Below, piece by piece: positions 37,175 through 63,838 of a stretch of DNA of 64,000 bases. How positions within the stretch are numbered: the stretch's first letter is position 1; every line of letters starts with the position of its first letter. The notes under the pieces were generated by a model, which made no database searches, was not told the DNA's origin, and worked only from the letters and a program-made list of their open reading frames with translations. The stretch comes from an uncultured virus (IMG/VR IMGVR_UViG_2061766007_000627) (Duplodnaviria; Heunggongvirae; Uroviricota; Caudoviricetes), in the IMG/VR virus record IMGVR_UViG_2061766007_000627; one strand, written 5' to 3'. Both the position numbers and the translations under genes were made by a program.

Positions 37175-38299
37175 ATGTATATGAAAGTAACTCTTTCAAC
37201 ACTTAAAGAAGCCTGTTCAAAACTGACTGTTGCATTAGATTCAGATGGGATAAATCCTATTACTAATGCACTTGAACTTTACGCAGAAGACGGAACTCCT
37301 GAACTGTCAATCAAGTTGACTAACCTTGAATATACAGTTAAGGTAACGATACCGCTTTCTGTTGCAGAAGATTTCCATACTACGGTATCTGCTGACATTT
37401 TTATTAAACTAATATCGCAGCTTACTACAGAAACCGTGGATTTGAGTATTTCTGAAAATGTTGTTGTAGTTACGGCAGATGGTACATATAAACTTCCGAT
37501 TCTTTATGTAGGAGAGCAGATGCTTACTATTCCTACCTTGACTCTTGAAACGGAAACAAGTACCTTCAAAATGCCGATTACTAATATGCAGACCATTAGC
37601 ACATATAACTCTAAAGAGCTTGCTAAAGGCGTAGCAGTAAAGCCTGTACAGAAGATGTATTATCTTGATAAAGAAGGCTGTATCACATTTACTTCCGGGG
37701 CATGCGTTACAGATTTTACTTTAAGCGAAGATGTCAAGATGCTTTTGCCAGGTAAGATAATAAATCTGTTTAAGTTATTTAAGGAAAAAGAAGTTACTTG
37801 GAAATTAGGAACACGCACTGTTTCTGGTAGTGTTATAAATATGCTTTCTCTTACAGAAAAGCAACTTGAAGTTATAGCACTTATTCCGAGTGACGTGGCT
37901 TTAATAAATAGTGTGCCGAAAGACGCTATTCGTACAATGGCAACAGGAGAATATCCATATACACTTTATCTTAATAAACAGAAACTGGCTAATGCGATTG
38001 AGCGTATCTTATTGTTTATGCCGAGAGATATGTACTCCGAACCATATGGTAAGTTTGAATTTGCTACCGACAGCATTTCTATTTATGACCGCAGTAAGGC
38101 TAATGTTGAACAGTTGTCTTATGGAGAAAACTCTATCATTCCTGATGAAACAAAATCTATCGTGTTAGATTTTAATGATGTTAGGGTGGTGCTTGATGCC
38201 ATTAAAGATGAAACAGTAATATTCAAGTTCGGAAATGATACATCTGTTCTGATTCAGCGTTCAGGTGTAACTAACATTATTCCAGAGTGTGTGCTATAA
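37175..38299 (+). CDS. dnaN: Sliding clamp, bacterial beta (DnaN)-like
   Basis: About 374 aa; L....TNLE, F.KLI..L, L...KL.NAI.R and C-terminal IIP patterns; clamp loader genes nearby. Confidence 0.7.
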   Translation: MYMKVTLSTLKEACSKLTVALDSDGINPITNALELYAEDGTPELSIKLTNLEYTVKVTIPLSVAEDFHTTVSADIFIKLISQLTTETVDLSISENVVVVTADGTYKLPILYVGEQMLTIPTLTLETETSTFKMPITNMQTISTYNSKELAKGVAVKPVQKMYYLDKEGCITFTSGACVTDFTLSEDVKMLLPGKIINLFKLFKEKEVTWKLGTRTVSGSVINMLSLTEKQLEVIALIPSDVALINSVPKDAIRTMATGEYPYTLYLNKQKLANAIERILLFMPRDMYSEPYGKFEFATDSISIYDRSKANVEQLSYGENSIIPDETKSIVLDFNDVRVVLDAIKDETVIFKFGNDTSVLIQRSGVTNIIPECVL

Positions 38300-42322: not shown

Positions 42323-42653
42323 ATTTGTTGTAAAAGAACTGCAAAAATGTAGAGTTCCTTTACCAAAGTGGGATAATGATACTACGCAGTTAGTTATCCC
42401 ACTTCATAGTTCTGAATCAGATGCAATGTCTGATGGTATTTTTGATATTAGTATAAAAAACTATATAATACACGAACCACCAAATTTTACACTCTCTATT
42501 GACTGGAACATGGGAACTGTTCCACCTGAAAGCAAAATGCGAGTAAGGTATGTTGATACAAGAGGTAAGATGACTAAAGTAGACGGAGTAGGCATTACTA
42601 CAAATACTCATTGGTCAGGGTGGCTGCCGAATAAAAGTTTTGAGGTTATATAA
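42315..42653 (+). CDS. Hypothetical protein
   Basis: ATG at 42315 with AAGGTG upstream; coupled to the next gene by TAATG. Confidence 0.6.
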   Translation: MNKFVVKELQKCRVPLPKWDNDTTQLVIPLHSSESDAMSDGIFDISIKNYIIHEPPNFTLSIDWNMGTVPPESKMRVRYVDTRGKMTKVDGVGITTNTHWSGWLPNKSFEVI

Positions 42654-43669
42654 TGAAATCGTTAGGTGTTAAGTACCGTCCTTCTGTATGGAGCGAGGTC
42701 ATAGGTCAGGAATCTGTTGTTACTATTTTGAAACAGCAGATTTTTACTAAATCATATAAGAACGCATATATCTTTAGCGGAGCATCTGGTTGTGGTAAAA
42801 CCACTTGTGCTAGAATATTCGCTAATGAAATAAATAATCATTGTGGGAGTCCTATCGAAATAGATGGTGCTTCTAACAATGGTGTTGATAATGTTAGACA
42901 AATTTCTGATAATGCTAATGCCAGGGCGTTAGATTCTGAATACAAAATCTACATTATAGATGAAGCACACGCATTATCAAATCAAGCGTGGCAGGCATTC
43001 CTTAAAACAATAGAGGAAACACCGAAGTACACTATCTTTATCTTCTGCACAACAGACCCACAGAAGATACCAGACACTATAAAGAATAGGTGTATGAGGT
43101 TCAACTTTACAAGGATTCCGTCTTACCAAATCAAATCAAGATTAGAAGAAGTTTGCAAGCAGGAGAGTTATACGAATTATCAAGACGCCTGTGACTATAT
43201 CAGCAGAATATGCAAGGGTGAAATGAGAAATGCGTTAAGCCTTCTTGAAACTTGCGCCGACTATTCTAATGACTTTTGTATTGATAATGTAGTAAAAGCA
43301 CTCGGCAATTTTTCTTATGACACATACTTTGATTTGACTAATGCTATCATAGATGGAGATATGCCGACAGCATTGAACATAATTTCAAAGGTGTATGCAG
43401 ATGGGAATGACCTTTCTTATTTTGTAATCTCATATCTTGACTTTGTGCTTGATGTAACCAAGTATATACAGTGCAAGGATATAGGAGTTACGAAACTTCC
43501 TATCAGCACAGAAGAGCAATTAAAATTTGCAACGGGTATAAGTGATGCTTCAAAATACTATCTGTATATGATAGATAAATTGCTCGAATTGAAGAATATG
43601 ATAAAGAATGATGTTGATGTGAAATCAACAGTAGAAGTTGTGATAACACAGATGTGCAGGCTGATATGA
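42653..43669 (+). CDS. dnaX: Clamp loader ATPase subunit (DnaX gamma-like)
   Basis: KYRP....EVIGQ, GCGKTT.ARIFA, EIDGASNNGVDNVR, IIDEAH.LS, LKTIEE, NRC, G.MRNALSLL. Confidence 0.92.
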   Translation: MKSLGVKYRPSVWSEVIGQESVVTILKQQIFTKSYKNAYIFSGASGCGKTTCARIFANEINNHCGSPIEIDGASNNGVDNVRQISDNANARALDSEYKIYIIDEAHALSNQAWQAFLKTIEETPKYTIFIFCTTDPQKIPDTIKNRCMRFNFTRIPSYQIKSRLEEVCKQESYTNYQDACDYISRICKGEMRNALSLLETCADYSNDFCIDNVVKALGNFSYDTYFDLTNAIIDGDMPTALNIISKVYADGNDLSYFVISYLDFVLDVTKYIQCKDIGVTKLPISTEEQLKFATGISDASKYYLYMIDKLLELKNMIKNDVDVKSTVEVVITQMCRLI

Positions 43670-44481
43670 TAGGACAGACAAAACTATTAAGCAGGATAGA
43701 AAAGTACACATACGAAACTTTCCCACAAGCATCTATATTTGAAGGTGATTTTGGTTGTGGCAAGAAAACTCTCACCTGTATTATCGGCAGAAAGTTTGAT
43801 AATTTGCCGATAGTTGATATGTCGCTTACGGTATCAAATGATACTATACTTGATACCTATACGAGTGCTATTCCCAAGTTGTATGTGATAGACATAAACA
43901 AGGCAGGGCAGAGTAAGAAACTAATTCCGCTTCAAAACTCTATATTGAAGTTTATAGAAGAGCCACCTGCTAACGCTAAAATCATAATATTGTGTGAAAG
44001 TAAAAATCAGTTACTTCCGACTATCCAAAATAGATGTCAACTGTTTTCTTTTGAGAAGTATTCTGCGTCAGAACTTCAGGAGTTTGCAGGGGGGCAAAAC
44101 ATCGAGGTAGAAAATGAATTGTTTTCTTTATATGATACCCCCGGAAAAATCTTATCATTACTAAACACGGAGTTTAACTATACTAAACTAAATGAACTGA
44201 TAGACAACATCATTGATAACATATCAAGAGCAAGTATTCCTAATTTGCTTACGATTGCTGATAAGATAGACTTCGGTAAAGGTGGCTACAACCTTGATAT
44301 ATTTCTAAAACAAATGAGAAACTCACTTGTAAGTAGAATGCAGACAGCCGAAGATTGCTCTATAATAGGTCAGTATGATAGAATAACAGCAGAGTTTGCA
44401 AAGCAATTACGAGCATTAAATATCAACAAAGAAATGTTGTTTGAAAATTACCTGTTGCGGTTAAAGGGTGTGACAGAATGA
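43654..44481 (+). CDS. holB: Clamp loader delta-prime (HolB)-like subunit
   Basis: GCGKKT, QNSILKFIEEPP, LLPTIQNRCQ. Confidence 0.8.
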   Translation: MQADMIGQTKLLSRIEKYTYETFPQASIFEGDFGCGKKTLTCIIGRKFDNLPIVDMSLTVSNDTILDTYTSAIPKLYVIDINKAGQSKKLIPLQNSILKFIEEPPANAKIIILCESKNQLLPTIQNRCQLFSFEKYSASELQEFAGGQNIEVENELFSLYDTPGKILSLLNTEFNYTKLNELIDNIIDNISRASIPNLLTIADKIDFGKGGYNLDIFLKQMRNSLVSRMQTAEDCSIIGQYDRITAEFAKQLRALNINKEMLFENYLLRLKGVTE

Positions 44482-45386
44482 CTATTGAAGAATTCAAGAG
44501 AGCAATAGAAGATAATACATTTTCGTTGCCACTCTTAATTGCCGAGTGTGAGGATGAAACTTCAGAGTTTGTATTCCAGCAGTATCTGCACGAATATATC
44601 AGCGAGAATGATTTATCATTTGAGTTTGTAGATAGCATATCAAATAAAGCACAAATCAATCTGTTTGGAATTGCAGAAACTAACCTAAAAGTTTATTTTA
44701 CGAAGAATCTGACAGAAGTATCCATTCCCAGGAGTAATCAACTCTGGGTACGCTGTAAGAGCATAAGTAAAGAGATAAGTAAAGAGTTTGCACAGTATGT
44801 AGTAAAGATACCTAAACTTGAAGAGTGGCAGATAAAAGACTATGTGTATACGCTTTGTGACGGAGTAAAACAATCCGAACTTGACTATCTGTTACAGGTG
44901 TACGGCAAAAACATTTATCGTATTGACAATGAGATTGCGAAGTTGACTTCATTTCAAAATATAGGACAGATTTATCCTAAAATCAAAGACCAACTATTCA
45001 ATGAAGTTAGCGAATATCAAATATTTGATTTAGTGAATGCTCTTGTCAGATATGATATAATGGCATTGACAAATATATTGAAACAGCTTGATGGTATAGA
45101 TGTAGATGTATTCGGCTTGCTCACTTTGTTAAAAACGAATTTTAGGCGAGTGATAGATATTCAGTTGTCACGGAATCCATCAGCACAATCAATAGGTGTA
45201 TCTGATAAACAATTCTGGGCAATAAAGAAGTATTCGTGTGGAATATATACAAGAACGCAGTTGTTTGAAATCTACACTTTCTTAACCGCCTGCGATTACT
45301 ATATTAAAAGTGGTTATATCAGTACCGATATGATGCTGAATTATATAATAGTTAAGATAATATCTGTTAAGGAGAGATGTGTATGA
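44478..45386 (+). CDS. holA: Clamp loader delta (HolA)-like subunit
   Basis: QINLFG, NEIAKL, IFDLVNAL and D..IKSG match the HolA pattern; adjacent to dnaX and holB. Confidence 0.75.
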   Translation: MTIEEFKRAIEDNTFSLPLLIAECEDETSEFVFQQYLHEYISENDLSFEFVDSISNKAQINLFGIAETNLKVYFTKNLTEVSIPRSNQLWVRCKSISKEISKEFAQYVVKIPKLEEWQIKDYVYTLCDGVKQSELDYLLQVYGKNIYRIDNEIAKLTSFQNIGQIYPKIKDQLFNEVSEYQIFDLVNALVRYDIMALTNILKQLDGIDVDVFGLLTLLKTNFRRVIDIQLSRNPSAQSIGVSDKQFWAIKKYSCGIYTRTQLFEIYTFLTACDYYIKSGYISTDMMLNYIIVKIISVKERCV

Positions 45387-51508: not shown

Positions 51509-51690
51509 TGGCAGATTTAGGAGATATATCCGTAATCACATTTCCAAATGGAAACAGCGTAAGTATAAAAGATGCAATAGCGAGAACAATGACACTTGAT
51601 GTTACATATACTCCTGGGGCTAACAATACACCAGGAGATTTGGCATTTGAGTTTATTACTGCCGCAAACGCCGATAATGAGGAATTCTAA
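51508..51690 (+). CDS. Small fibre adaptor-like protein
   Basis: ISVITFPNGNSVSIKDAIAR N-terminal motif shared with the fibres; C-terminal ADNEEF. Confidence 0.55.
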   Translation: MADLGDISVITFPNGNSVSIKDAIARTMTLDVTYTPGANNTPGDLAFEFITAANADNEEF

Positions 51691-52487
51691 TGGGCCAAGT
51701 TTTAGTTACAGACACTAATCTTACAAATATTGCTAATGCAATAAGGACTAAGAGTGGCACAACAACTAAATATACTCCTGCAAATATGGCATCAGCTATT
51801 AGTGCTATTCCAGGCGGTGCATTTAACTGGATGGGCGATGGTGTTGAGTGCTTAAATGCAAATTTATATAACACAACTGTTCAATTAGCAGATACGACTT
51901 TTTCTACTTGGACTGCTTCTACTACTGCGAAGTCATTACACTCAACTACAAGTTTATCAACCTTTTCTGCTGATATGGCAAATTATGCTTATTTACTTCG
52001 CTGGGTTACCGTTGCTCATGTTGCTCTTAAAGATACTGCTACGCTTAATACAGTTCCGTGCGGGTTACAAATTAATTTATTTGACCAACAAATAATGCGT
52101 AGACCAAACAGTTTAGTTAATATAGAAGCAAATAACTATAACGGAAATGTATATGTTAATAGTGCAAGTTTAGGCTGGATGCAATATTATAGTACTTCAG
52201 GTTCTAAAACCTATACCTGGGCCTCTTCTTATGGATTTTATGGGAGTGTGCCAACCCCAACTTTTGCAAGTTCAACGGCATCACCTACGGATGTAACACC
52301 AAAAACTCCAATTTTATATACTAGATGTAGTACAACATATTTTGCAACTGCAAGAAAAGGTGATATAGATATAGATAATACTTATTGGACCATTCATGGT
52401 GAATTGTATAGAATGGACCTTACAAAAAATTGTATGCGACAACGGTATACAGATTTAATTGACATTATCAACGATGAATTAGAATAA
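51690..52487 (+). CDS. Fibre/receptor-binding protein
   Basis: LTNIANAIR.K.GTT..YTP..MA.AI N-terminus, then a Thr-rich beta domain. Confidence 0.65.
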   Translation: MGQVLVTDTNLTNIANAIRTKSGTTTKYTPANMASAISAIPGGAFNWMGDGVECLNANLYNTTVQLADTTFSTWTASTTAKSLHSTTSLSTFSADMANYAYLLRWVTVAHVALKDTATLNTVPCGLQINLFDQQIMRRPNSLVNIEANNYNGNVYVNSASLGWMQYYSTSGSKTYTWASSYGFYGSVPTPTFASSTASPTDVTPKTPILYTRCSTTYFATARKGDIDIDNTYWTIHGELYRMDLTKNCMRQRYTDLIDIINDELE

Positions 52488-52500
52488 GGACATTAATTAA

Positions 52501-54258
52501 ATGCCTAATCCACAAATTACAACTATAACTGCTGATGGTACTACTTATGACATAGTAGATACAATAAGCGGGTATGCACCTAAAGCATCTCCTGCTTTGA
52601 CAGGAACACCTACAGCGCCAACTGCTCCGTCTGGAACCGACACTACTCAGATTGCGACAACGGCGTTTGTACAAGATGCTATTGAGGGAATGGGTACAGG
52701 TAGCGTTACAAGTGTTGCTGTTAGTAATGCGACTAATGGTGGACTTTCTGTATCTGGAAGTCCTATTACGACATCTGGAACAATTACTGTTGGTCACTCT
52801 AATGTACTGACATCCGCACAAACTACCCAAGCAGTATATCCAATAAAAATAGATAAAAACGGACATATAAGTGCATACGGAAATGCAGTTACGATTCCAG
52901 TTGTACCAGAAAATACTGGAAATTCTACTACAGGAATATCAATAGCCGACCACAGCACAGGTACTGTTACAGGCGTACAATCTACTACAACATCGGTTAC
53001 TGGTGTTCAGGCTACAACTACAACTGCATCGCATGTAAAAAGCGGAGGAAATGGAACCGCCCCAACATTAGGAACTGCAATAGAAGTTCCTAATGTAACT
53101 GGTGCAAGTGATGTAACAGTTCCAATAAGAGCAGACAGTGCAACTACTGTTCCTGTTGCCGCATCTTCTGCAACAACTGTACCGATTAAAAATGCAACGG
53201 CAACATCTATTCCAAATGTCACAGATGTAGGTTCAGCATCAAATTGGGTCTTTGAGAATATAACAGTTCCTATTAGAAATGATAGTGCAACTACTGTTCC
53301 AACGGCGGCTTCTTCCGCTACGACAGTTCCTATTAAAAATGCGAATGCAACCTCAATCCCAAATGTAACTGCGGCTGGTTCTGGTTCTTTCACACAAGGT
53401 TCATTTAGCGGAGGCTCATTTACACAAGGAACAGATAGTTTTACTGCTAATACACCTACTGTAATAGATACTACTAAATTTAATGCAGGTTCGTATTCAC
53501 ATTCAGGATTTAGCGGTGGTAGTGGTAGTTTTACGCAAGGTTCATTTAGTGGTGGCTCAATTGTAGTTACTAATCATGTCCTATCTTTTACACCTGCTAC
53601 TCACGGAGCGGATTCACATACACATACAGGAGCAACATACGGTACAGACAGTTTCACAGCACCAAGTTTAGGAACAGGATTTTACACAGCAGGAACTGTG
53701 GCTTCGTTTACGCAAGGCGAAGATGAATTTACTCCTGCAACACACGGAGCAGATTCACATACACATACACCGCCAACTCTTGGAACTGCAATTTCAATTT
53801 ATGGCGTACAGTCAAGTACAACATCTGTTACTGGTGTAAGCGGAAGTACATCTATCTATGGTGTAAAATCAGGAACAGGCTCTACAACAACTGCTTCTCA
53901 TGTTGCGAGTGGAGGGAACGGAACTGCTCCAACATTGGGTGACCCGATTTCAATCATCGGTGTTCAATCTTCAACAACTTCTGTTACGGGTGTCAGCGGT
54001 TCAACTTCAGTATATGGTGTTAAGAGTGGAACAAACTCAACTACAACAGCATCGAAAGTTACGCTTGGCACAGCAATAGAAGTGCCTAATGTAACTTCTG
54101 TTGGTTCTGCTTCTAACTGGGTATTTGAAGATGTTACCGTCCCAATTAAGAATGCTTCCGCTACAACAGTACCGATTAAAGATGCTTCTGCTACGACAGT
54201 TGTCACAACTGCAACGCATTCAGTTACAGATAACGGTCACACACACTCATTGGAGTAA
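52501..54258 (+). CDS. Tail fibre with nested repeats and HxH motifs
   Basis: AP.ASPALTGTPTAPT...TQIATTAFV fibre motif; GVQ/TVPIK repeats; three HTH tripeptides. Confidence 0.8.
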   Translation: MPNPQITTITADGTTYDIVDTISGYAPKASPALTGTPTAPTAPSGTDTTQIATTAFVQDAIEGMGTGSVTSVAVSNATNGGLSVSGSPITTSGTITVGHSNVLTSAQTTQAVYPIKIDKNGHISAYGNAVTIPVVPENTGNSTTGISIADHSTGTVTGVQSTTTSVTGVQATTTTASHVKSGGNGTAPTLGTAIEVPNVTGASDVTVPIRADSATTVPVAASSATTVPIKNATATSIPNVTDVGSASNWVFENITVPIRNDSATTVPTAASSATTVPIKNANATSIPNVTAAGSGSFTQGSFSGGSFTQGTDSFTANTPTVIDTTKFNAGSYSHSGFSGGSGSFTQGSFSGGSIVVTNHVLSFTPATHGADSHTHTGATYGTDSFTAPSLGTGFYTAGTVASFTQGEDEFTPATHGADSHTHTPPTLGTAISIYGVQSSTTSVTGVSGSTSIYGVKSGTGSTTTASHVASGGNGTAPTLGDPISIIGVQSSTTSVTGVSGSTSVYGVKSGTNSTTTASKVTLGTAIEVPNVTSVGSASNWVFEDVTVPIKNASATTVPIKDASATTVVTTATHSVTDNGHTHSLE

Positions 54259-54261
54259 TAG

Positions 54262-54966
54262 ATGTCAACAAATTATATAGACCAAATTACAGATACTGCG
54301 GGTACTACCCAAGATATTGCAGAATCTGAATCTACAAGAATATATAGAGCAACCTGTTCAACTGCCGCCTCTACTGCGGCGAAAGTTGCTACGTTAGGAA
54401 CAAGCAATAAAAACTTTTCTTTAACAGCAGGAGTTAGAGTTGCTGTTACTTTCACATATGGGAATTCAGCAACGACTCCTACATTAAGAGTAGACGGAAG
54501 TTCCACAGGAACAGCAAAGACTATTGCATTTCCTACTGCAACCGCAACAAGAACAACGGGAAACGGAACTACATATAACACCTGGGGTCCTTACGAAACA
54601 ATCATTTTTACTTATGATGGAACATACTGGGTACACAGCGGTTCGGGTCTTTCAATTTACAATGCGTATAATAGTACTGGGTCACATACTCATGGAAACA
54701 TAAGTAATGCTGGTGCTATTACTTCTGACACCACGATTGCAACGGGTGATAAACTCGTCATTACGGATAATAGTGATAGCAGTAAGGTAGCGCGTTCACC
54801 GCTTTCATTTGATACAAGTACAGGAAATACAGAGAAGTTTTTATCAAAAGCAGGTACTTGGGAAGATGCACCTCAAACACTGATTGGGTCTACATATAAC
54901 AGCACAGACAAAGAAGTTATTTTAACTATCGGTAGCCTTACCGATGTGGATAATACGGACTATTAG
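54262..54966 (+). CDS. Tail fibre-like protein
   Basis: ATCSTAASTAAKVAT...FTYDGTYW and HTHGNI modules shared with 62106. Confidence 0.7.
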   Translation: MSTNYIDQITDTAGTTQDIAESESTRIYRATCSTAASTAAKVATLGTSNKNFSLTAGVRVAVTFTYGNSATTPTLRVDGSSTGTAKTIAFPTATATRTTGNGTTYNTWGPYETIIFTYDGTYWVHSGSGLSIYNAYNSTGSHTHGNISNAGAITSDTTIATGDKLVITDNSDSSKVARSPLSFDTSTGNTEKFLSKAGTWEDAPQTLIGSTYNSTDKEVILTIGSLTDVDNTDY

Positions 54967-54968
54967 AA

Positions 54969-55079
54969 ATGCCAAAAGTAGCTTTAACAGAACAATATCT
55001 TGAAGATATAGCAGATGCTATTCGTGCCAAGAACGAATCTGAAACTTTATATAAACCGTCAGAGATGGCACCCGCCATT
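54969..55079 (+). CDS. 5' fragment of a fibre protein (truncated by N-gap)
   Basis: LEDIADAIRAK...YKPSEMAPAI, paralogous to the 51690 N-terminus. Confidence 0.65.
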
Positions 55080-55797
55080 NNNNNNNNNNNNNNNNNNNNN
55101 NNNNNNNNNNNNNNNNNNNNNNNNNNNNNNNNNNNNNNNNNNNNNNNNNNNNNNNNNNNNNNNNNNNNNNNNNNNNNNNNNNNNNNNNNNNNNNNNNNNN
55201 NNNNNNNNNNNNNNNNNNNNNNNNNNNNNNNNNNNNNNNNNNNNNNNNNNNNNNNNNNNNNNNNNNNNNNNNNNNNNNNNNNNNNNNNNNNNNNNNNNNN
55301 NNNNNNNNNNNNNNNNNNNNNNNNNNNNNNNNNNNNNNNNNNNNNNNNNNNNNNNNNNNNNNNNNNNNNNNNNNNNNNNNNNNNNNNNNNNNNNNNNNNN
55401 NNNNNNNNNNNNNNNNNNNNNNNNNNNNNNNNNNNNNNNNNNNNNNNNNNNNNNNNNNNNNNNNNNNNNNNNNNNNNNNNNNNNNNNNNNNNNNNNNNNN
55501 NNNNNNNNNNNNNNNNNNNNNNNNNNNNNNNNNNNNNNNNNNNNNNNNNNNNNNNNNNNNNNNNNNNNNNNNNNNNNNNNNNNNNNNNNNNNNNNNNNNN
55601 NNNNNNNNNNNNNNNNNNNNNNNNNNNNNNNNNNNNNNNNNNNNNNNNNNNNNNNNNNNNNNNNNNNNNNNNNNNNNNNNNNNNNNNNNNNNNNNNNNNN
55701 NNNNNNNNNNNNNNNNNNNNNNNNNNNNNNNNNNNNNNNNNNNNNNNNNNNNNNNNNNNNNNNNNNNNNNNNNNNNNNNNNNNNNNNNNNNNNNNNN

Positions 55798-57118
55798 AAT
55801 TAGATTAGTTCCAAGTACATATGCGGTATCATCGACATCATATTTAAGCGTATCTAATGCAAATAATATGTACACAAATGTTGATAGTACCACATATGCT
55901 ACTATTACAAATACATATGCTTCTACTTCATCAAGATATTTATACTTAAGAGGCTTTAATTTTGATGATATACCTAGTGGCGCAACGATTAATTCTTTTA
56001 CAGTAAAAATTAAGGGATATGAAAGTGGATTAGCTACTAGTACTTCATATGCTCCAAGATTAGCAAATGGTACATCTGCTATTTCAAACACAACCGCTTC
56101 TACTAATTTTGGAACTTCAACTAAGACGATAACAATACCAACTGGGTCATTGACTTGGTCTCAAATTGCAGATACTTATGGCTCTAACTTTACCATAATG
56201 GTATATGTTAGAAGAGCTAGTAAAAATACAAAAGGTTATTTCTACTGCTATGGTGCAGAAATACTTGTTGATTATACTATTCCTGTTTATCATAATGTCA
56301 CCGTTACTAATAACACTTCAGCAACGGTAACGGCTAATCCTACAAGTGTTCTTGAAGGAAATTCATCTACAATCACTTCAAACACATTAAGTAATATAGT
56401 AATTACTGATAATAATGTAGATGTTACTAATCAATTTGTTCTTCATAGCGGTACAAGTGGAGATTATTCAACTGCAACAAGAGGTACATATGGATTTGCA
56501 CTTAATGGTAGTGGATATTATGAAAGTCAGAATAAAGGTATAGATAAATCTTGTTCGGTATGTCGTGTGAGTTTTAATTTACCAGTGTCAGCCAATGTAA
56601 CATTTCAGTATATTAACTACGCAGAAGCGACATATGACTTTGGCGTATTTGGTAATGTAGATGTAGCATTGACAACAAATTATTATCCCGCTGGTTCAGG
56701 TGGCGCAACTATATCAGAGACAAGTTATAAAAAAGCATGCAATACATCATCAGATAATACTTCATCGGTACAAACATTGACATATAGTAATGTATCAGCA
56801 GGAGACCACTTCATAGATGTCAAGTTCTCAAAGGATGATGCTTCTGCTTCTAATAATGACACATTACAGTTCAAAGTAACAATAACATATAGTCAATCAG
56901 TTTCATATTATTCATATACAATTAGTAATATAACTGTGGACCATGTAATTGTAGTTAATGCAAGTGGGAGTCAACCGAAAATCTTTGTAAAAGTCAATGG
57001 TACTTGGACGCAATATTCAAAAGTTTATAAAAAAGTTAACGGAGCCTGGGTTGAACAGGCAAGCTCAACTTGGTCTACTTTATTTAATACAAATACGAAT
57101 TATCGGAAAATGTCATGA
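55798..57118 (+). CDS. Fibre tip / carbohydrate-binding-like protein (start lies outside this segment)
   Basis: Frame is open from the gap (IRLVPSTY...); C-terminal KIFVKVNGTW....VYKKVNGAW motif. Confidence 0.7.
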
Positions 57119-57128
57119 GGAATAACAT

Positions 57129-57728
57129 ATGGCAGTAACTAATACTGTAACAGGAAAAATGAACTACCTGACTGTGGGTAGTAATACATATGAAATAGAA
57201 GATAAAAACGCCGCACCGCTTGCTTCCCCCGCATTTACAGGAACGCCTACGGCACCAACAGCAACAGCAGGAACAAGCACGACTCAGATTGCAACGACTA
57301 AATTTGTAATGGATGCTATGTCAGGAGCAGGTGCAGGAACAGTCACATCTGTTGGGATTTCTAACGCAACTAATGGCGGATTGTCTGTAAGTGGTTCTCC
57401 TATTACATCTTCTGGTACAATTTCAGTTGGACATTCCAATGTGTTGACTTCTGCTCAAACAACACAGGCTGTTTATCCTATTAAAATAGATAAGAATGGA
57501 CACATCAGTGAGTATGGTACTGCCGTTTCGATAACTGATGAAAATATGAAATGGACAGCATCTACTAGTTCAAATACATATTATCCATTACAGTCAACAT
57601 CAACCGCAACTACTGGAACAGCTAACACATTAAATTCAGTTAGTTTCTATCAATATTATAATACTGCTGGTGGTTATAGACGATTAATTTTAGGAAATGG
57701 TACTGCATATACGTCTACTGGCGGTGCA
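57129..57728 (+). CDS. 5' part of a tail fibre paralogous to 52501
   Basis: APLASPAFTGTPTAPT and a 53-aa block 50/53 identical to 52501; ends at an N-gap. Confidence 0.75.
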
Positions 57729-57738
57729 NNNNNNNNNN

Positions 57739-59079
57739 ACTATTTCAATTACTACGAATGGCACTCATAATGTTTATAATTATGCCAGTGCGAATGTACA
57801 AGTGTCGTCTACAATAAATAATCAAGATAAAACAGTTAACCCGTCAACATCGCAACAATCAATTACTGCAGACTCTGGGTACACAGGATTAGGCACAGTA
57901 ACAGTAAACGCAATGCCAAGTGGTACTGCGGGCACACCTACGGCAACAAAGGGAACGGTATCTAATCATAGTGTTTCTGTAACCCCAAGCGTAACTAATA
58001 CTACAGGCTATATTACAGGAAGTACCAAAACTGGTACAGCCGTAACTGTTTCAGCAAGTGAACTTGACAGCGGAACAAAAAGCATCACGCAAAACGGAAC
58101 AGGGATAGATGTAGTCGGCTATGCCACAGTAGATGTCAGCGTAAGTGGTGGTGCTGTAAACAACCAAAACAAAACTGTTACTTCATCTGGAACATTACAG
58201 ACAGTAACTTATGATAGTGGATATACAGGATTAGGAACTGTAACTATCAATGCCGCACCAAGTGCTGATATTAGTTCATCTTTTACTGGACAATTTATTA
58301 CAGAAAATAATATCAGAAAATGGCGAGTAACCCCAGGTGCTTATGCAGAAAGTTCTGGCTGGGTAAGTGAAGGTTCTATTCCAAGTGCGACTCCAACCAC
58401 ATATAATGCAATAGCTTCAAATACTACAATAATACCAACTGAATCTGCACAAACTGTTGGTGGACAAAGCTATATGATGGAAGGTGCTGTAACCATTGGT
58501 GCTATCGACTCAGAATATGTTGGCTCATTAGTCCCACGTGTTACAGCCACCGATGTTACAGTATCTGGGCCTACAGTAACTATGCCAAGCGGTTTTTACG
58601 GCACAGAACTTACAAAAACAGTTGCTTCTGGAAGTGCAAGGGGACCATCGTCACTCAGTGGAACATCTGCAACAGTATCAACGGGAACGAACACACTGAC
58701 GCTTACAAAAACAAATGTGAGTACAACACCGACAGTAAGTGCTGGTTATGTATCTTCTGCAACCGCTTCAACAGCAACAGTTACACTCACCGCTTCCGTT
58801 ACAACTAAATCCGCAACAACATATCATCCATCTACTACTGCTCAATCAATCTCTTCAGGAACATACCTTACTGGGGCTCAAACAATTGCGGCGGTCACTA
58901 CTTCAAATTTGTCTGCTTCAAATATTGTAAGTGGAGTTACGATTAAAGTTGGTGATTCTTCAGATGATGATTGCGTGGCGAGCGTAACTGGTAATGTAGT
59001 TTTACAAAATTACTATACTGGAAGTTCTGCTCCTTCTTCCTCAACGGGAAGTAATGGAGATTTATATCTTCAGAGTTAA
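57739..59079 (+). CDS. 3' part of a fibre protein (probably continues 54969)
   Basis: ISITTNGT.NV..YA.A.V.V and two NNQ.KTV...DSGYTGLGTVT.NA repeats; C-terminal GSSAPSSSTGSNGDLYLQ. Confidence 0.7.
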   Translation, partial: TISITTNGTHNVYNYASANVQVSSTINNQDKTVNPSTSQQSITADSGYTGLGTVTVNAMPSGTAGTPTATKGTVSNHSVSVTPSVTNTTGYITGSTKTGTAVTVSASELDSGTKSITQNGTGIDVVGYATVDVSVSGGAVNNQNKTVTSSGTLQTVTYDSGYTGLGTVTINAAPSADISSSFTGQFITENNIRKWRVTPGAYAESSGWVSEGSIPSATPTTYNAIASNTTIIPTESAQTVGGQSYMMEGAVTIGAIDSEYVGSLVPRVTATDVTVSGPTVTMPSGFYGTELTKTVASGSARGPSSLSGTSATVSTGTNTLTLTKTNVSTTPTVSAGYVSSATASTATVTLTASVTTKSATTYHPSTTAQSISSGTYLTGAQTIAAVTTSNLSASNIVSGVTIKVGDSSDDDCVASVTGNVVLQNYYTGSSAPSSSTGSNGDLYLQS

Positions 59080-59106
59080 GGGGGTAGATTATGGCGNNNN
59101 NNNNNN

Positions 59107-59838
59107 ATATGGTGCGCCTGCAACATATTATGGAGATTTAGTTCCCGGAGTATTAAGTACAAGTTCAACAGGAAGATTAACTGCAAATAGAACATGGACA
59201 TTTCCAGATGCAACAGGTACAGTAGCTCTTACTTCTGATATTCCTACTGTTCCATCTGCAACACAGTCTGCAACAACTGGAATTTCTATCGCCGCACATG
59301 GAACAGGAACAGTAATAGGGGTGCAGTCAAGCACAACCTCTGTTACAGGTGTACAATCTACAACAACTACAGCTTCAAAAGTTACAGTTGGAAGTTCATC
59401 TACTGATTATGGCGTTACTGCAACAAATACTCCTACCGTGATAGATACAACTAAGTTTAATGGTGGCAGTTACTCTCATTCAGGATTTAGCGGCGGNNNN
59501 NNNNNNGTGGTGGTTCATTAACTATGACAATGGACACTACTGACACAAAAAAATTAAATATTACATTTACTGCAGCAACACACGGAAATGACTCATTTAC
59601 CGCCGCTTCATATGGCACTGATTCATTTACAGCTGCAAGTTTAAGCAATGGATTTTACACTGCAGGTACAGCGGCGACACTTGGCTCAAAAGTTCCGACA
59701 GTAAGCGCAAGTGATGTAACAGTTCCAATCAAAAATACATCTGCAACAACTGTTCCGATTAAAAATACAAGTGCATCAACATTTGTGACAGGTACTACGC
59801 ACACAGTTACAGATAATGGTCATACACATACACTTTGA
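59107..59838 (+). CDS. 3' part of a tail fibre (probably continues 57129; ORFs 59054 and 59524 are one frame split by a 10-N gap)
   Basis: RTWTFPDATGTVALTSDI, then GVQ, TVPIK and DNGHTH modules paralogous to 52501. Confidence 0.7.
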
Positions 59839-59851
59839 TATATGTTATAAT
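59823..59851 (+). promoter_or_regulatory. Possible sigmaA extended -10 promoter within the fibre cluster
   Basis: TACACA-N17-TATAAT with TG at 59843 (TGTTATAAT). Confidence 0.5.
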
Positions 59852-59867
59852 AACCAAGAGGTAAAAT

Positions 59868-60635
59868 ATGGCAAACTATACAATTGACAAATTTTCTTAT
59901 GGCGGTAACAATTACACACTACAAGATAATACTAAAACGCTCTCTGCGGAATTAAGCACAGATAACGCATTTATCACAACTCTAGGTGATGATGCTACTA
60001 TGCTTATACTTGAAGCGGGTAATAACATCAGTATTAATGCAACTACAGCGGGTTCGAGTGACGTTACATATACTATAAGTGCAACGGGAGGCGGTGCTTC
60101 GTATACAGCAACTTCTCCTATTGATATTACAAATAGTGTTATAAGTCATGAAACAAGCGGCGTTACAGCTGGAACTTATGATGGTGGCGGTGTAAAAGAT
60201 ACTGGTACATATTTTCCATCGTTTACAGTAGATTCTACAGGGCATATTACTTCTGCAACTGACCTTGGTACCTTAATTCCGATAATTGGGACATCGAATG
60301 ATACAACCAGTTATGGAAGTTTATTGAATGCGAGTACATGGTCATTTGCGCTGAGAGGTCTCGGTTCAACATATTATACATTAGCCGCAGGTAATACAAG
60401 TACAACAATAACCATTTCCACAGATACTTATTCTTCATCTTCAAATAAATCAAGATTCAGAGTAGCCGATGTACACGCATATGATATGTCAACTGGAGAG
60501 CGTTTATTTGTGGACTGGAGTACGCCCACAGTAGTAAGTGGTGGGTCATCGCTGACGCTTACTGTATCTATTGCTTCTGCGTGGACACACGCAATAGTTA
60601 TCTTTCCTATTCTTACCTATGCCGCTCTAATGTAA
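59868..60635 (+). CDS. Fibre-like protein
   Basis: L.AGNNISI and ISH..SGVTAGTY...TVD..GHITSA modules; C-terminal domain paralogous to 62106. Confidence 0.7.
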   Translation: MANYTIDKFSYGGNNYTLQDNTKTLSAELSTDNAFITTLGDDATMLILEAGNNISINATTAGSSDVTYTISATGGGASYTATSPIDITNSVISHETSGVTAGTYDGGGVKDTGTYFPSFTVDSTGHITSATDLGTLIPIIGTSNDTTSYGSLLNASTWSFALRGLGSTYYTLAAGNTSTTITISTDTYSSSSNKSRFRVADVHAYDMSTGERLFVDWSTPTVVSGGSSLTLTVSIASAWTHAIVIFPILTYAALM

Positions 60636-60647
60636 TGAGGTAACTAA

Positions 60648-61157
60648 ATGTACTCGAATGGAACCGAAGTAAAAATAGTAACGCAAAATGTATTTGGTGA
60701 TGGCAATCATGAATCAACGCAACTTGTACTTGATGCACTTTATCAGTCCGACCCAAAGGATAAAATAGTTCTTGACATAGGAACAGGAACAGGCGTGCAG
60801 GCAATCTATGCTAAAAAATGGGGAGCAAAAGATGTTCTCGCAGTTGATGTTGATTACTTTGCAATAATGACAGCAAGAGATAACTTCAAACGAAATGATG
60901 TTAAGATAAAATCAAGACTTAATATCTACAATGAATATCTACACACAAAAGCAGATATTACAGTTGCAAATCTTCCTGCTCACAATATAAGAGAATATCT
61001 TAAAATTGCAAAATCAACTATGAAAGAAGATGGAGTTCTCATCTGTTCATTCCCAACACAGTTTAATTTTGCAAACGAATGCGATTTATCTGAATACGAA
61101 ATAGTAAATCAGATTGATGGCATAGAGTATAACGCATATATATTAAGGAGTAAATAA
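60648..61157 (+). CDS. PrmA-like class I SAM-dependent protein methyltransferase (catalytic domain only)
   Basis: FGDGNHEST (PrmA FGTGxHxTT), VLDIGTGTG, AVDVD..A...A..N...N, DITVANL. Confidence 0.85.
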   Translation: MYSNGTEVKIVTQNVFGDGNHESTQLVLDALYQSDPKDKIVLDIGTGTGVQAIYAKKWGAKDVLAVDVDYFAIMTARDNFKRNDVKIKSRLNIYNEYLHTKADITVANLPAHNIREYLKIAKSTMKEDGVLICSFPTQFNFANECDLSEYEIVNQIDGIEYNAYILRSK

Positions 61158-62095
61158 TGAAATATCTTGGAGCGATAACTAGTGATTATGATTTAGTAAA
61201 TAAAAAATATGTAGACGATTCTATCCCCACTGTGCCGACTATTACCCTTAATGGAGGTACAACTTCTTCCCCAAATTTTTACGCACCTTTAGGTGCAGGA
61301 ACATCTGGGCAGTATTTAAAATCAAATGGCTCTGACCCACCATCATGGGCAAGTTTCCCAACTATTCCAAGTATCACACTTAATGGAAGTTCAACTACAT
61401 CTCCGAGTTTCTATGCGCCTACTTCAGTAGGAACAAGTGGATATGTATTGAAATCTAACGGCTCTGGCGCTCCAACATGGACAAGTGCCACATTAACAGA
61501 TACACAGGTCACATCAACAACAGTTACTGCGGCGACCACATTCTATCCTGCAGGTAGTACAAGCAGTTCAACTGCTACTGGAGGATTAAGTAAGCACGCA
61601 TCTATAGTTGCCTATGTGTCTGCTAATACTAGTGCAACGGGATATTCAAGGCTTACGCTAGGAAATTCAACCGCAAGTGGCACGGCAGGCGCCAAATACG
61701 GAGAATTACGTTTGTACCAAGAAGGTGCGCACGTAACATCGTTAAGGGCGACAACTGTTTCCGATGCAGATATAACATCATATTTACCCGCAAGAAGTGG
61801 AACGATTGAAAATGGGTTTGTGAGCGTATCGTCTGTATCTTCTTTCTCTGCAACTAATAACACGTTCACTGCCGCCAGAAATGGGATATTCATATTCAAT
61901 ATGAGGGCGAGTGCGGCGAGTGCTTATATAGGAATACAAGATACCCATGATAGCGTTTATATGGCTCAGCAAACCATTCCTAATAACGGCAACTATGCCA
62001 GCGTATGCTTCCCAGTGCTTTCTGGTAGGCAGTACAAAATTATACAGGCAACAAATTTAACTTCTACCAGTGCATATGTAATATACTTCGGATAA
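61157..62095 (+). CDS. Fibre-like protein
   Basis: D.VNKKYVD motif; two ITLNG..T.SP.FYAP...GTSG..LKSNGS..P.W repeats. Confidence 0.7.
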   Translation: MKYLGAITSDYDLVNKKYVDDSIPTVPTITLNGGTTSSPNFYAPLGAGTSGQYLKSNGSDPPSWASFPTIPSITLNGSSTTSPSFYAPTSVGTSGYVLKSNGSGAPTWTSATLTDTQVTSTTVTAATTFYPAGSTSSSTATGGLSKHASIVAYVSANTSATGYSRLTLGNSTASGTAGAKYGELRLYQEGAHVTSLRATTVSDADITSYLPARSGTIENGFVSVSSVSSFSATNNTFTAARNGIFIFNMRASAASAYIGIQDTHDSVYMAQQTIPNNGNYASVCFPVLSGRQYKIIQATNLTSTSAYVIYFG

Positions 62096-62105
62096 GGAAT
62101 TATAG

Positions 62106-63371
62106 TTGGGTACAATAGGGAAAATAACAGCAGGTGGTGTTACGCATTTATTGTCATCAACTGCTTATGCAACTTGCTCAACAGTTGCAGGAACATCAGC
62201 AAAAATAGCAACTATTCAGGACGGTCAGGACTTCTCATTATTCAATGGAGAAACCGTCCATGTTAAGTTTACTTATACTAATACCGCAAGTTTACCTACA
62301 CTAAACATTAATGGTACAGGGGCGTACCCAATAGCAAGATACGGCAATACTGCAGTAGGCACAACTGTCAGCACATCATGGCAAGCAGGTGCCGTGATTA
62401 CTGTTACTTTTGACAGTGATTCTTTTGACGGCGGATGCTGGCAAATGAATGATTTTTCAGAAAGTGGAAATAATACAACATATTCATTGTCTGGAGAAGT
62501 GGAGTCACACACATTTACAACTACACTAACTCCTTCTTCAGGAGCGTCAACAACATCAGAATTACAACTTTCTGCAGGAACGAACATTACCCTGACAGAC
62601 ACTACTAATGGAATACAAATTGGTGCTTCACATTCTCATGGTGGAATTCAAAATAGCGGTGCATTTTTGCAAAATTCCACAACCACAGCAAATTTTGAAA
62701 ATGCAGATAGACTATTATTTGTAGATGCTTCTTCAAGTAATATGATAAAAGCATCAAATATCACGTTTGGTACAGGTACAAATACCTATTTAAGAAATGA
62801 TGGTACTTGGGCCACTCCTGATAGTGGAAGTTCGTACACAGCTACTTTTCCTATTGACATAACAAACGGAGATATAAGTCATGATATGAGTGGGGTTACC
62901 CCAGGGACATATTCAATTACCGCTGACCCTATGGGTACTGGAGGATATTATGTTCCGTCATTTACTGTAGATGATATGGGACACCTTACAAGTGCATCTG
63001 CCTCATCAGGGTTGCTCCCGGCTGTAAGTATTGTAAACTATACATCGGGGGTACTGTCAGGTGCGCAATATACACGAATACCCAGACTTAGTGCGACTTA
63101 CCGAGCAGAATTTACATTAACCGCAGGTCTTACAACGGGTACATTTACAATATCAGATACATATGGACATCCTTCATACTTTATGATATATGATGTTAAA
63201 GCAAGAGATGCAGTTACAGGAGAGCCATTAGATGTTGGTTGGACAACTGATTATATTAGTAGTGATTCAGGCATGGCTACATCATTAGTATTAACTGTAA
63301 CTTTAAATGAAGCCTATGTTAATAATATCTACTTATTCCCGATGATGTCATACATGAGAGCGGGAATGTGA
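62106..63371 (+). CDS. Fibre-like protein (mosaic of 54262 and 59868 modules)
   Basis: ATCST.A....K.AT, HSHG.I, YLRNDGTWATP, ISHDMSGVTPGTY. TTG start. Confidence 0.7.
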   Translation: MGTIGKITAGGVTHLLSSTAYATCSTVAGTSAKIATIQDGQDFSLFNGETVHVKFTYTNTASLPTLNINGTGAYPIARYGNTAVGTTVSTSWQAGAVITVTFDSDSFDGGCWQMNDFSESGNNTTYSLSGEVESHTFTTTLTPSSGASTTSELQLSAGTNITLTDTTNGIQIGASHSHGGIQNSGAFLQNSTTTANFENADRLLFVDASSSNMIKASNITFGTGTNTYLRNDGTWATPDSGSSYTATFPIDITNGDISHDMSGVTPGTYSITADPMGTGGYYVPSFTVDDMGHLTSASASSGLLPAVSIVNYTSGVLSGAQYTRIPRLSATYRAEFTLTAGLTTGTFTISDTYGHPSYFMIYDVKARDAVTGEPLDVGWTTDYISSDSGMATSLVLTVTLNEAYVNNIYLFPMMSYMRAGM

Positions 63372-63379
63372 GGAAGAAA

Positions 63380-63838
63380 ATGAAATATTTAGGACCAATA
63401 TCTGACCCACTTGATTATGTAAATAAAAAATACGTAGATGCTAATGATGAGGTTTACTACGAAGAAGATTCTGGTGGAAGCGAGGGTATCTACTCTAAAA
63501 CACTTGGCGAAAAAATATATACCGCTGGAGATATTGTTTGGAACCAAATGACATTGAGCGGCACCCAAATAGCATCATTCAGGATTGGTGATGAAGTTAA
63601 AGCAGTCTTTGCCCCAACTTCTGGTGGAAGCTCATATACTCCAATTTTAAGAATGAACAATGTTGACTATGCTATACAGCGATGGGAATATACAACCATA
63701 AGTGGAAAGACTGGAATCAATTTTGTATATCTAGATGGTGCAGATGAAGATACACTGTTTGTGCCAATTACCCCGCCTACACTTTCAATGTCGATAGACA
63801 GCACGGACACGAAAAAGTTGAATATATCATATCTCTGA
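63380..63838 (+). CDS. Small fibre-associated protein
   Basis: MKYLG.I....D.VNKKYVD shared with 61157; C-terminal D.TDTKKLNI shared with the 59107 fragment. Confidence 0.65.
   Translation: MKYLGPISDPLDYVNKKYVDANDEVYYEEDSGGSEGIYSKTLGEKIYTAGDIVWNQMTLSGTQIASFRIGDEVKAVFAPTSGGSSYTPILRMNNVDYAIQRWEYTTISGKTGINFVYLDGADEDTLFVPITPPTLSMSIDSTDTKKLNISYL

Follow-up and report, generated by a model that had tools for sequence, protein, structure and literature searches.

The window analysed here, a stretch of 64,000 nucleotides, corresponds to bases 1-64000 of a 136,989-base virus record that has direct terminal repeats and is rated complete. It encodes a baseplate hub, DNA polymerase, primase, helicases, a clamp loader and SbcCD, and the major capsid, portal, terminase, sheath and tube proteins are encoded elsewhere in the same 137-kb record; the sheath, tube, portal and capsid genes identify the phage as a myovirus. 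The clamp loader set is of bacterial type (delta and delta-prime-like, 43654-45386 and 42653-43669) and is adjoined by a sliding-clamp-like gene at 37175. The fibre genes and the elements of the predicted hairpin are as follows.

51690..63838, plus strand, the run continuing to about 64700: co-oriented cluster of Thr/Ser/Gly-rich fibre-like genes around the hairpin genes
52501..54258, plus strand: fibre gene bearing the predicted hairpin, 585 aa, confirmed by a contig with 0 differences
52501..52929, plus strand: N-terminal part (aa 1-143), whose modules likely serve in attachment and as linkers, with PHROG matches
52930..53574, plus strand: outgoing arm of 215 aa (aa 144-358), with 14 typed blocks
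53560..53589, plus strand: turn, aa 354-363, with a two-residue beta-turn at aa 358-359 in both AlphaFold models
53575..54246, plus strand: returning arm of 224 aa (aa 359-582), with the 14 partner blocks in the opposite order
53617..53625, plus strand: His-x-His at aa 373/375, candidate metal site by analogy to gp37
53758..53766, plus strand: His-x-His at aa 420/422, candidate metal site
54238..54246, plus strand: terminal His-x-His at aa 580/582, candidate clamp at the needle base
57129..57728, plus strand: probable N-terminal part of the paralogue, 57728 and 59107 being joined by contig ends
59107..59838, plus strand: C-terminal part of the paralogue, with a shorter hairpin (from about 59276) and a different turn

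Aa 17-68 of the 585-aa product match tail-fibre PHROGs 2631, 7032 and 454 (E 1e-12 to 1e-9), and with fibre-type modules and a tailed-phage genome around it the protein classes, as judged from sequence, as a phage tail fibre on general criteria. The protein as a whole hits no Pfam family, and aa 136-585 are without match in Pfam, PHROG, the PDB sequences or the phage records searched. Specifically, tblastn against 50,697 phage records gave 0 matches, with no cultured-phage match to the hairpin, and Pfam over 66 aligned family members left the hairpin without a match beyond sub-threshold noise. Among GTDB genome contigs, 70 pattern matches yielded 0 confirmed cases; a cluster look-up of 6 relatives returned the annotation 'hypothetical protein' only, and the ESM Atlas gave no usable feature match and a poor whole-protein model (pTM 0.16).

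Repeats made by assembly were considered and rejected, as the copies have diverged synonymously and a contig reproduces ORF 52501-54258 with 0 differences (one contig, possibly itself source data). Over 36 codons, two outgoing copies differ by 17 synonymous and 4 residue differences, and two returning copies by 21 and 4, a pattern which indicates that the repeat copies are old and have been selected as protein.

The paralogue is interrupted in the window by 10-N gaps. As the earlier note had claimed, each of its arms is shorter, with 2 outgoing and 2 returning blocks, and the turn differs. The 10 Ns of the gap at 59497-59506 represent 23 bases; contigs from two runs (X1 and X2) supply 13 more and restore the frame, and the gap bases encode a Phe-Thr-Arg variant, which is the partner demanded by the facing return block (an after-the-fact check). 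Most of the paralogue stretch is contained in two runs whose label is bovine gut metagenome; both belong to one sample, which may be the source. Through their loose ends, contigs link 59107 with sequence preceding 57729, and 59095 with sequence following 55797. From these joins, the piece 57739-59096 is apparently misplaced and likely belongs in the 718-N gap (55080-55797); the gaps of this apparently misordered part lie at 55080-55797, 57729-57738 and 59097-59106. The paralogue likely starts at 57129, where the ORF begins with the same N-terminal modules as ORF 52501-54258, and a reordered scaffold would, it appears, make the ORFs at 54969 and 57129 longer, intact fibre genes.

Partner blocks in mirror order

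The positions of the blocks in the 585-aa protein are given below.

Outgoing arm, first half (aa): start 144; Gly-Val 158, 168; Gly-Asn-Gly 182; Val-Pro 206/216/226
Outgoing arm, second half (aa): Trp 244; Val-Pro 255/265/275; Phe-Gly 297; Lys-Phe 318; Phe-Gly 344
Returning arm, first half (aa): His 363; Phe-Tyr 389; His 410; Gly-Val 435/445/454; Gly-Asn-Gly 471
Returning arm, second half (aa): Gly-Val 487/497/506; Trp 535; Val-Pro 546/556; end block 573-582

The earlier note had listed modules in mirror order around a turn, and every block was found in ORF 52501-54258 where it had been placed. The eight block types make four partner pairs (Gly-Val/Val-Pro, Gly-Asn-Gly/Trp, Phe-Gly/His and Lys-Phe/Phe-Tyr), either partner of which may occupy either arm, and in the query the outgoing string of 14 tokens equals the returning string reversed and partner-swapped. 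The proposal that GV stands opposite TVP in equal numbers holds, with counts of 2:2, 3:3 and 3:3, as does the opposition of GGNGTAP to GSASNW, which is the Gly-Asn-Gly/Trp pair and fits the 14-block mirror string. One pair was recognised beyond that first reading, a Phe-Gly variant (aa 332) that has a partner of its own (aa 378), and the Gly-Val/Val-Pro pair resolves into three subtypes, each of which also matches across the arms. At the level of residues, Gly faces Pro, Leu faces Asn, Phe faces His and Lys faces Trp.

A search with aa 136-585 retrieved 429 proteins, and the relatives analysed are 120 among the matches listed. Together with the query they provided 91 domains with both end motifs (30 dropped), 87 of them with one recognisable turn (4 dropped), and these 87 collapse to 65 distinct outgoing strings, or architectures. 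Among the matches listed, the code is matched exactly by 58 of the 87 domains and 39 of the 65 architectures, and to within one block by 54 of 65 architectures. Mismatched pairs of arms match exactly in 2 of 4160 cases, and 2000 shuffles of block order gave a mean of 0.5 and a maximum of 3 exact matches among the 65 architectures, compared with 39 observed; a plain-mirror reading gives 0/65. Within the 39 architectures that match exactly, the three Gly-Val subtypes stand opposite the corresponding Val-Pro subtype in 85/89, 32/35 and 37/39 instances, and the two Phe-Gly variants meet their own partner in 10/10 and 16/16. As to the 29 of 87 domains without an exact match (again among the matches listed), we read most of those inspected as misses of the tokeniser.

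The relatives are not independent, and the block alphabet was fixed after the query and some relatives were known. Because of this shared ancestry and post hoc choice of alphabet, we added a hold-out in which a residue-facing matrix, learned without motifs from the 65 architectures, was applied to 109 newly found proteins. The top facing pairs in the matrix are Val-Val (684), Gly-Pro (652), Phe-Phe (306), Leu-Asn (239), Ile-Lys (227), Phe-His (220) and Lys-Trp (91). Forty of the 109 proteins score above all 30 of their block shuffles, where about 3.5 would be expected, and 24 reach a z of at least 4; the 69 that fail to beat all their shuffles include matches through the N-terminal modules only and short hairpins diluted in the 450-aa stretch. 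Five other fibre-like ORFs are indistinct from shuffles (7-59 of 100 shuffles reach their score). The idea of a partner code between the arms is thus sustained by the 14-block match, by the exact architectures and by this motif-free signal.

The family has 1006 representatives at E up to 0.001, some of which are reached via N-terminal modules only. Three loci from a set of 52 (L001, L003 and L007) were read by eye; in L001, a 4.2-copy outgoing array stands opposite a 4.6-copy returning array (79% and 78% matches), with partner blocks of unequal length, 96 and 87 nt. A second fibre family (G000:C1:73911-75503, L001 2917-4554, L003 5477-6943 and L007 4754-5725) has the Gly-Val/Val-Pro pair around a similar turn, without terminal histidines. 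The learned matrix finds no long mirror in it, as 92-100 of 100 shuffles reach the score, and since G000 73911-75503, a third candidate in the present genome, and three relatives lie below the shuffles they are not counted as long hairpins of this code, although a few blocks are common to them. The second family may use another one.

Mirror order could also stem from nucleic acid, as a DNA inverted repeat, an mRNA hairpin, or an old inverted duplication read antisense. One antisense frame of the outgoing arm is indeed a little closer to the return arm than shuffles are (BLOSUM -5 versus -44 +/- 13), a score reached by 0/200 codon shuffles and 6/200 block shuffles, and the hairpin DNA contains two inverted pairs, both weak, one of them 36 nt at 72%. 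The antisense likeness is, however, what arises when Gly faces Pro and Thr faces Val. When outgoing DNA was compared with the reverse complement of the return arm, the score was 179, no better than that of synonymous recodings (181.9 +/- 11.6, with 119/200 reaching it), and on this ground a DNA inverted repeat was rejected as the cause of the mirror; nor would strict pairing suit partner blocks of 96 versus 87 nt. We therefore consider a nucleic-acid origin very improbable as a whole: present-day DNA pairing as the cause is largely refuted, and an ancient inverted duplication at the origin is only remotely possible. Minus-strand ORFs overlie the hairpin at 53007-53393 and 53964-54206 and are likely a by-product of Gly/Pro and Thr/Val codon complementarity.

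Predicted fold of the arms

AlphaFold modelling of the inner 154 aa (aa 281-434, 42 sequences) reached a pLDDT of 91.8. The model comprises seven strand pairs whose ends all sum to 157 (i+j=717), giving a centre at aa 358.5, and its tip is a two-residue turn between strands 69-77 and 80-88; pairing was derived from the symmetry of strands in the secondary structure and not from a contact map. For the 450-aa region (66 sequences) the full-length monomer model is weak (pLDDT 60.7, pTM 0.23), with the turn at aa 358-359, a confident inner part and symmetric outer strands. Construct residues 81-145 and 301-366 lie below pLDDT 50, and these two stretches are mutual mirror partners. Over aa 284-356, the learned matrix is positive at i+j=717 only, among sums 709-727. 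The single clean anti-diagonal at i+j=717 is restricted to aa 284-433; farther out no single ungapped register fits, which implies small bulges in the outer arms. An out-and-back hairpin centred near aa 358 had been anticipated, and the strand symmetry of the AlphaFold monomer about 358.5 bears this out. That the C-terminal 440 residues form an antiparallel out-and-back hairpin is, in our judgement, very likely.

The repeats are rich in Thr, Ser, Gly and Val, as is typical of fibres that fold as a parallel triple beta-helix or a beta-spiral, and the Atlas whole-protein model (pTM 0.16) is uninformative on the point, so that repeats which merely look ordered along a sequential fold deserve consideration. 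Such a fold would give no reason for partners in reverse order or for balanced arms; the parallel reading matches 0/65 architectures exactly, and AlphaFold returns a hairpin. We find a sequential fold barely credible.

A search of PDB sequences with the family profile gave 0 matches to E 10, and Foldseek (PDB and BFVD) and VIA-align, run on both models, gave none at E 0.001, a two-stranded monomer being a poor query. The best fold-search Z is 3.4, and all such rows are non-significant (phi29 collar 2.3, P68 tail 2.9, beta-pore stems up to 3.4). This absence of fold matches does not demonstrate a new fold.

Arm length and its change

Matched shortening or lengthening of both arms, as the earlier note had proposed, is what the family displays. 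Among the matches listed, the outgoing arm varies from 90 to 306 aa over 87 domains, and the return arm minus the outgoing arm lies between -9 and +15 in 85 of the 87. Over the 65 architectures, arm lengths correlate with r 0.917, or 0.994 without the outliers P0005 and P0014, which are the only two of the 87 listed domains whose arms are unbalanced by >20 aa. These two are counter-cases unless mis-assembled; if real, they may be intermediates or side branches.

We propose that length would likely change through exchange of nested inner cassettes at mirrored blocks, with paralogous genes or co-infecting phages as the exchange partners. Because block types recur on both arms and in paralogues, one recombination at two mirrored blocks would swap a whole inner hairpin, and unbalanced products would be removed by selection. 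Two hairpin genes are present in the genome studied here, and two in L003. A contig from run X3 keeps the outer arms of the paralogue and replaces its inner 271 bases by 145; the replacement is in-frame, 42 codons fewer, and its joints read as mirror positions. This contig, of depth 5.5, is the one piece of evidence for a cassette swap.

The main rival retains the trimeric fold-back needle and has its length change stepwise, slippage in one arm leaving a bulge that is later repaired by compensation in the other, with no cassette exchange. Direct repeats within each arm (spacings of 147 and 156 nt, and of 141 and 141 nt) would permit slippage, the two unbalanced domains could be intermediates, and the drifting outer register suggests that small bulges are tolerated. 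Yet only 2 of 87 domains are unbalanced, both possibly mis-assemblies, and one close relative carries an inner replacement with both flanks kept. Moreover, the repeat copies are saturated at synonymous sites in both genes examined, and so show no sign of recent one-arm slippage. We regard stepwise change as doubtful, and favour cassette exchange.

In the distal tail fibre genes of T-even phages, recombination in conserved motifs is known to swap or duplicate segments (Tetart et al. 1996, 1998, as cited in PMC3157838 and PMC9603124). As described in the cited passages, T-even shuffling is an exchange of specificity domains or a single duplication, whereas here each change has its counterpart at a mirrored position, as far as 400 codons off in the same gene.

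Proposed needle model and known fibres

Our preferred reading is that the mirror arms zip into a long hairpin, that three chains likely intertwine as a thin six-stranded needle and that the needle likely changes length by cassette swap; taken together, this is the probable course. The three-chain arrangement itself, suggested by the fibre context, we likewise hold to be fairly likely. Since partner blocks can be used on either arm, each block would determine register locally, much as happens in an RNA stem, and with register fixed in this manner any nested arrangement would fold. The N-terminal modules may attach the fibre, the shaft set its length and the short turn close the needle, which on the virion would form the far end of a multi-gene tail fibre and give it reach. 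Scaled from the T4 needle, the one studied here would be 50-65 nm long, and the family would range from about 20 to 90 nm.

The hairpin could be real and yet form no three-chain needle, existing as a two-stranded ribbon or as side-by-side copies in a wider beta-barrel or sheet, in the manner of the phi29 lower collar. The only rows of the fold searches, all non-significant, are long-hairpin chains of large barrels, and His-x-His motifs are sparse. Z values below 4 carry no weight, however, and tail-fibre families are matched at the N-terminus. The Phe-Phe, Val-Val and Phe-His pairs that face each other would suit a packed narrow core, and the base with its four invariant histidines would, on the analogy of gp37, be consistent with a three-fold metal site, all of which makes a non-needle arrangement unlikely.

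His151, His573, His580 and His582 are invariant in the 66 aligned sequences, where they occupy positions 16, 438, 445 and 447 of the first sequence. As the mirror roughly relates His151 to His573, six histidines from both arms of three chains could plausibly clamp the base, and the putative clamp would probably work through histidine-bound metal. The query has 3 His-x-His motifs in 440 aa; among the matches listed there are 1-5 per domain over 87 domains, 43 of which have two and 7 have one.

An exchangeable tip loop had also been suggested by the earlier note. Among the matches listed, four classes of turn, all short, account for the 87 domains (49, 26, 8 and 4), each found on many shafts, and two shaft strings occur with two tip classes each. 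The tips are accordingly interchangeable yet conserved, which upholds exchange of the loop but only among four conserved short types; a hypervariable receptor head at the tip was rejected for the same reason. With the tip so short and conserved, a role for it in host range is doubtful, and direct binding of a receptor by the tip is a tentative suggestion that we would sooner doubt than accept.

In T4 gp37 the chain doubles back to form a six-stranded trimeric barrel that binds iron through di-histidine motifs (PMC12609058, PMC6957217, PMC9659904, PMC9603124); the stem has 50-64 residues per arm and the tip 28 (PMC6957217), and the T4 needle measures about 150 by 25 Angstrom (PMC3004832). Needles of the Felixounavirus Bas63 vary in length and in number of di-histidine motifs (PMC12609058). 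As far as the cited passages describe them, the gp37 needle (D10-D11, PDB 2XGF) and the Bas63 tips (RBPseg class TC6) resemble the present domain in being C-terminal in the fibre, folded back, antiparallel and endowed with His-x-His motifs. The differences are also considerable. The arms here, of 215 and 224 residues (90-306 in the family), are about four times longer than the 50-64 residues per arm given for gp37 in those passages; the modelled turn has 2 residues, in contrast to a globular receptor-binding head of about 28 residues at the gp37 tip; and the T4 needle, though far shorter, has 7 iron sites as against 3 His-x-His motifs here. Partner blocks that recur and can serve on either arm are not described for gp37 in the cited passages. 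In addition, 3 residues separate the mirrored region from the stop in the query, and 2-12 residues do so in 91/91 delimited domains. Since the mirrored region thus reaches the C-terminus, the protein is without the collar-completing C-terminal residues of gp37, and no match to a collar family was found in the hairpin protein by Pfam, by PHROG or over the 66 aligned members. Similarity to solved gp37-like chains was found neither by sequence nor by fold, a lone monomer model being a poor query. For want of collar completion, globular head and detectable kinship, we do not file the domain as a member of the gp37 needles. By analogy it likely works as the gp37 needle does, and membership of the gp37 family is not claimed. 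Our literature search found no paper on a repeat-coded fold-back fibre; supplements to the RBPseg atlas could contain one.

The most far-reaching interpretation is that this is a fold of its own kind, not descended from gp37, in which a complementary alphabet of peptide blocks serves as a base-pairing code and gut phages retune needle length in one step, through swaps of nested inner cassettes among paralogues, to match the thickness of the host surface layers. We put this forward as a conjecture with somewhat less than even chances. If it were true, rigid needles of about 20 to 90 nm would be made from a small block alphabet, their contacts would be readable from sequence and new nanorods of chosen length could be written. 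Compensating change between distant parts of a chain is a signature of RNA stems, and here it involves whole peptide blocks in hundreds of phage proteins. The family offers testable rules for how antiparallel strands keep register over long distances and perhaps a code for designing protein nanorods, and it assigns a predicted fold to a domain outside the coverage of Pfam, PHROG and PDB. As a natural series of rods of graded length, it would also be a tool for asking whether fibre length sets the host range of gut phages.

Several observations concern the setting of these fibres. Genes at 52501, 54262, 57129, 59868 and 62106 have at their start much the same short motif (alternating Ile followed by Gly, Tyr, Ile, Asp), which is also common among the 120 relatives (among the matches listed) and is possibly a docking module. 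Attachment at the phage head or neck is also conceivable. One relative, P0030, has a Pfam match to BppL_N (lower baseplate protein N-terminal; E 2.5e-7), a weak hint at baseplate attachment. A PrmA-like methyltransferase gene lies within the fibre cluster at 60648-61157 (Pfam PF06325, E 4e-29), and its product might modify fibre proteins.
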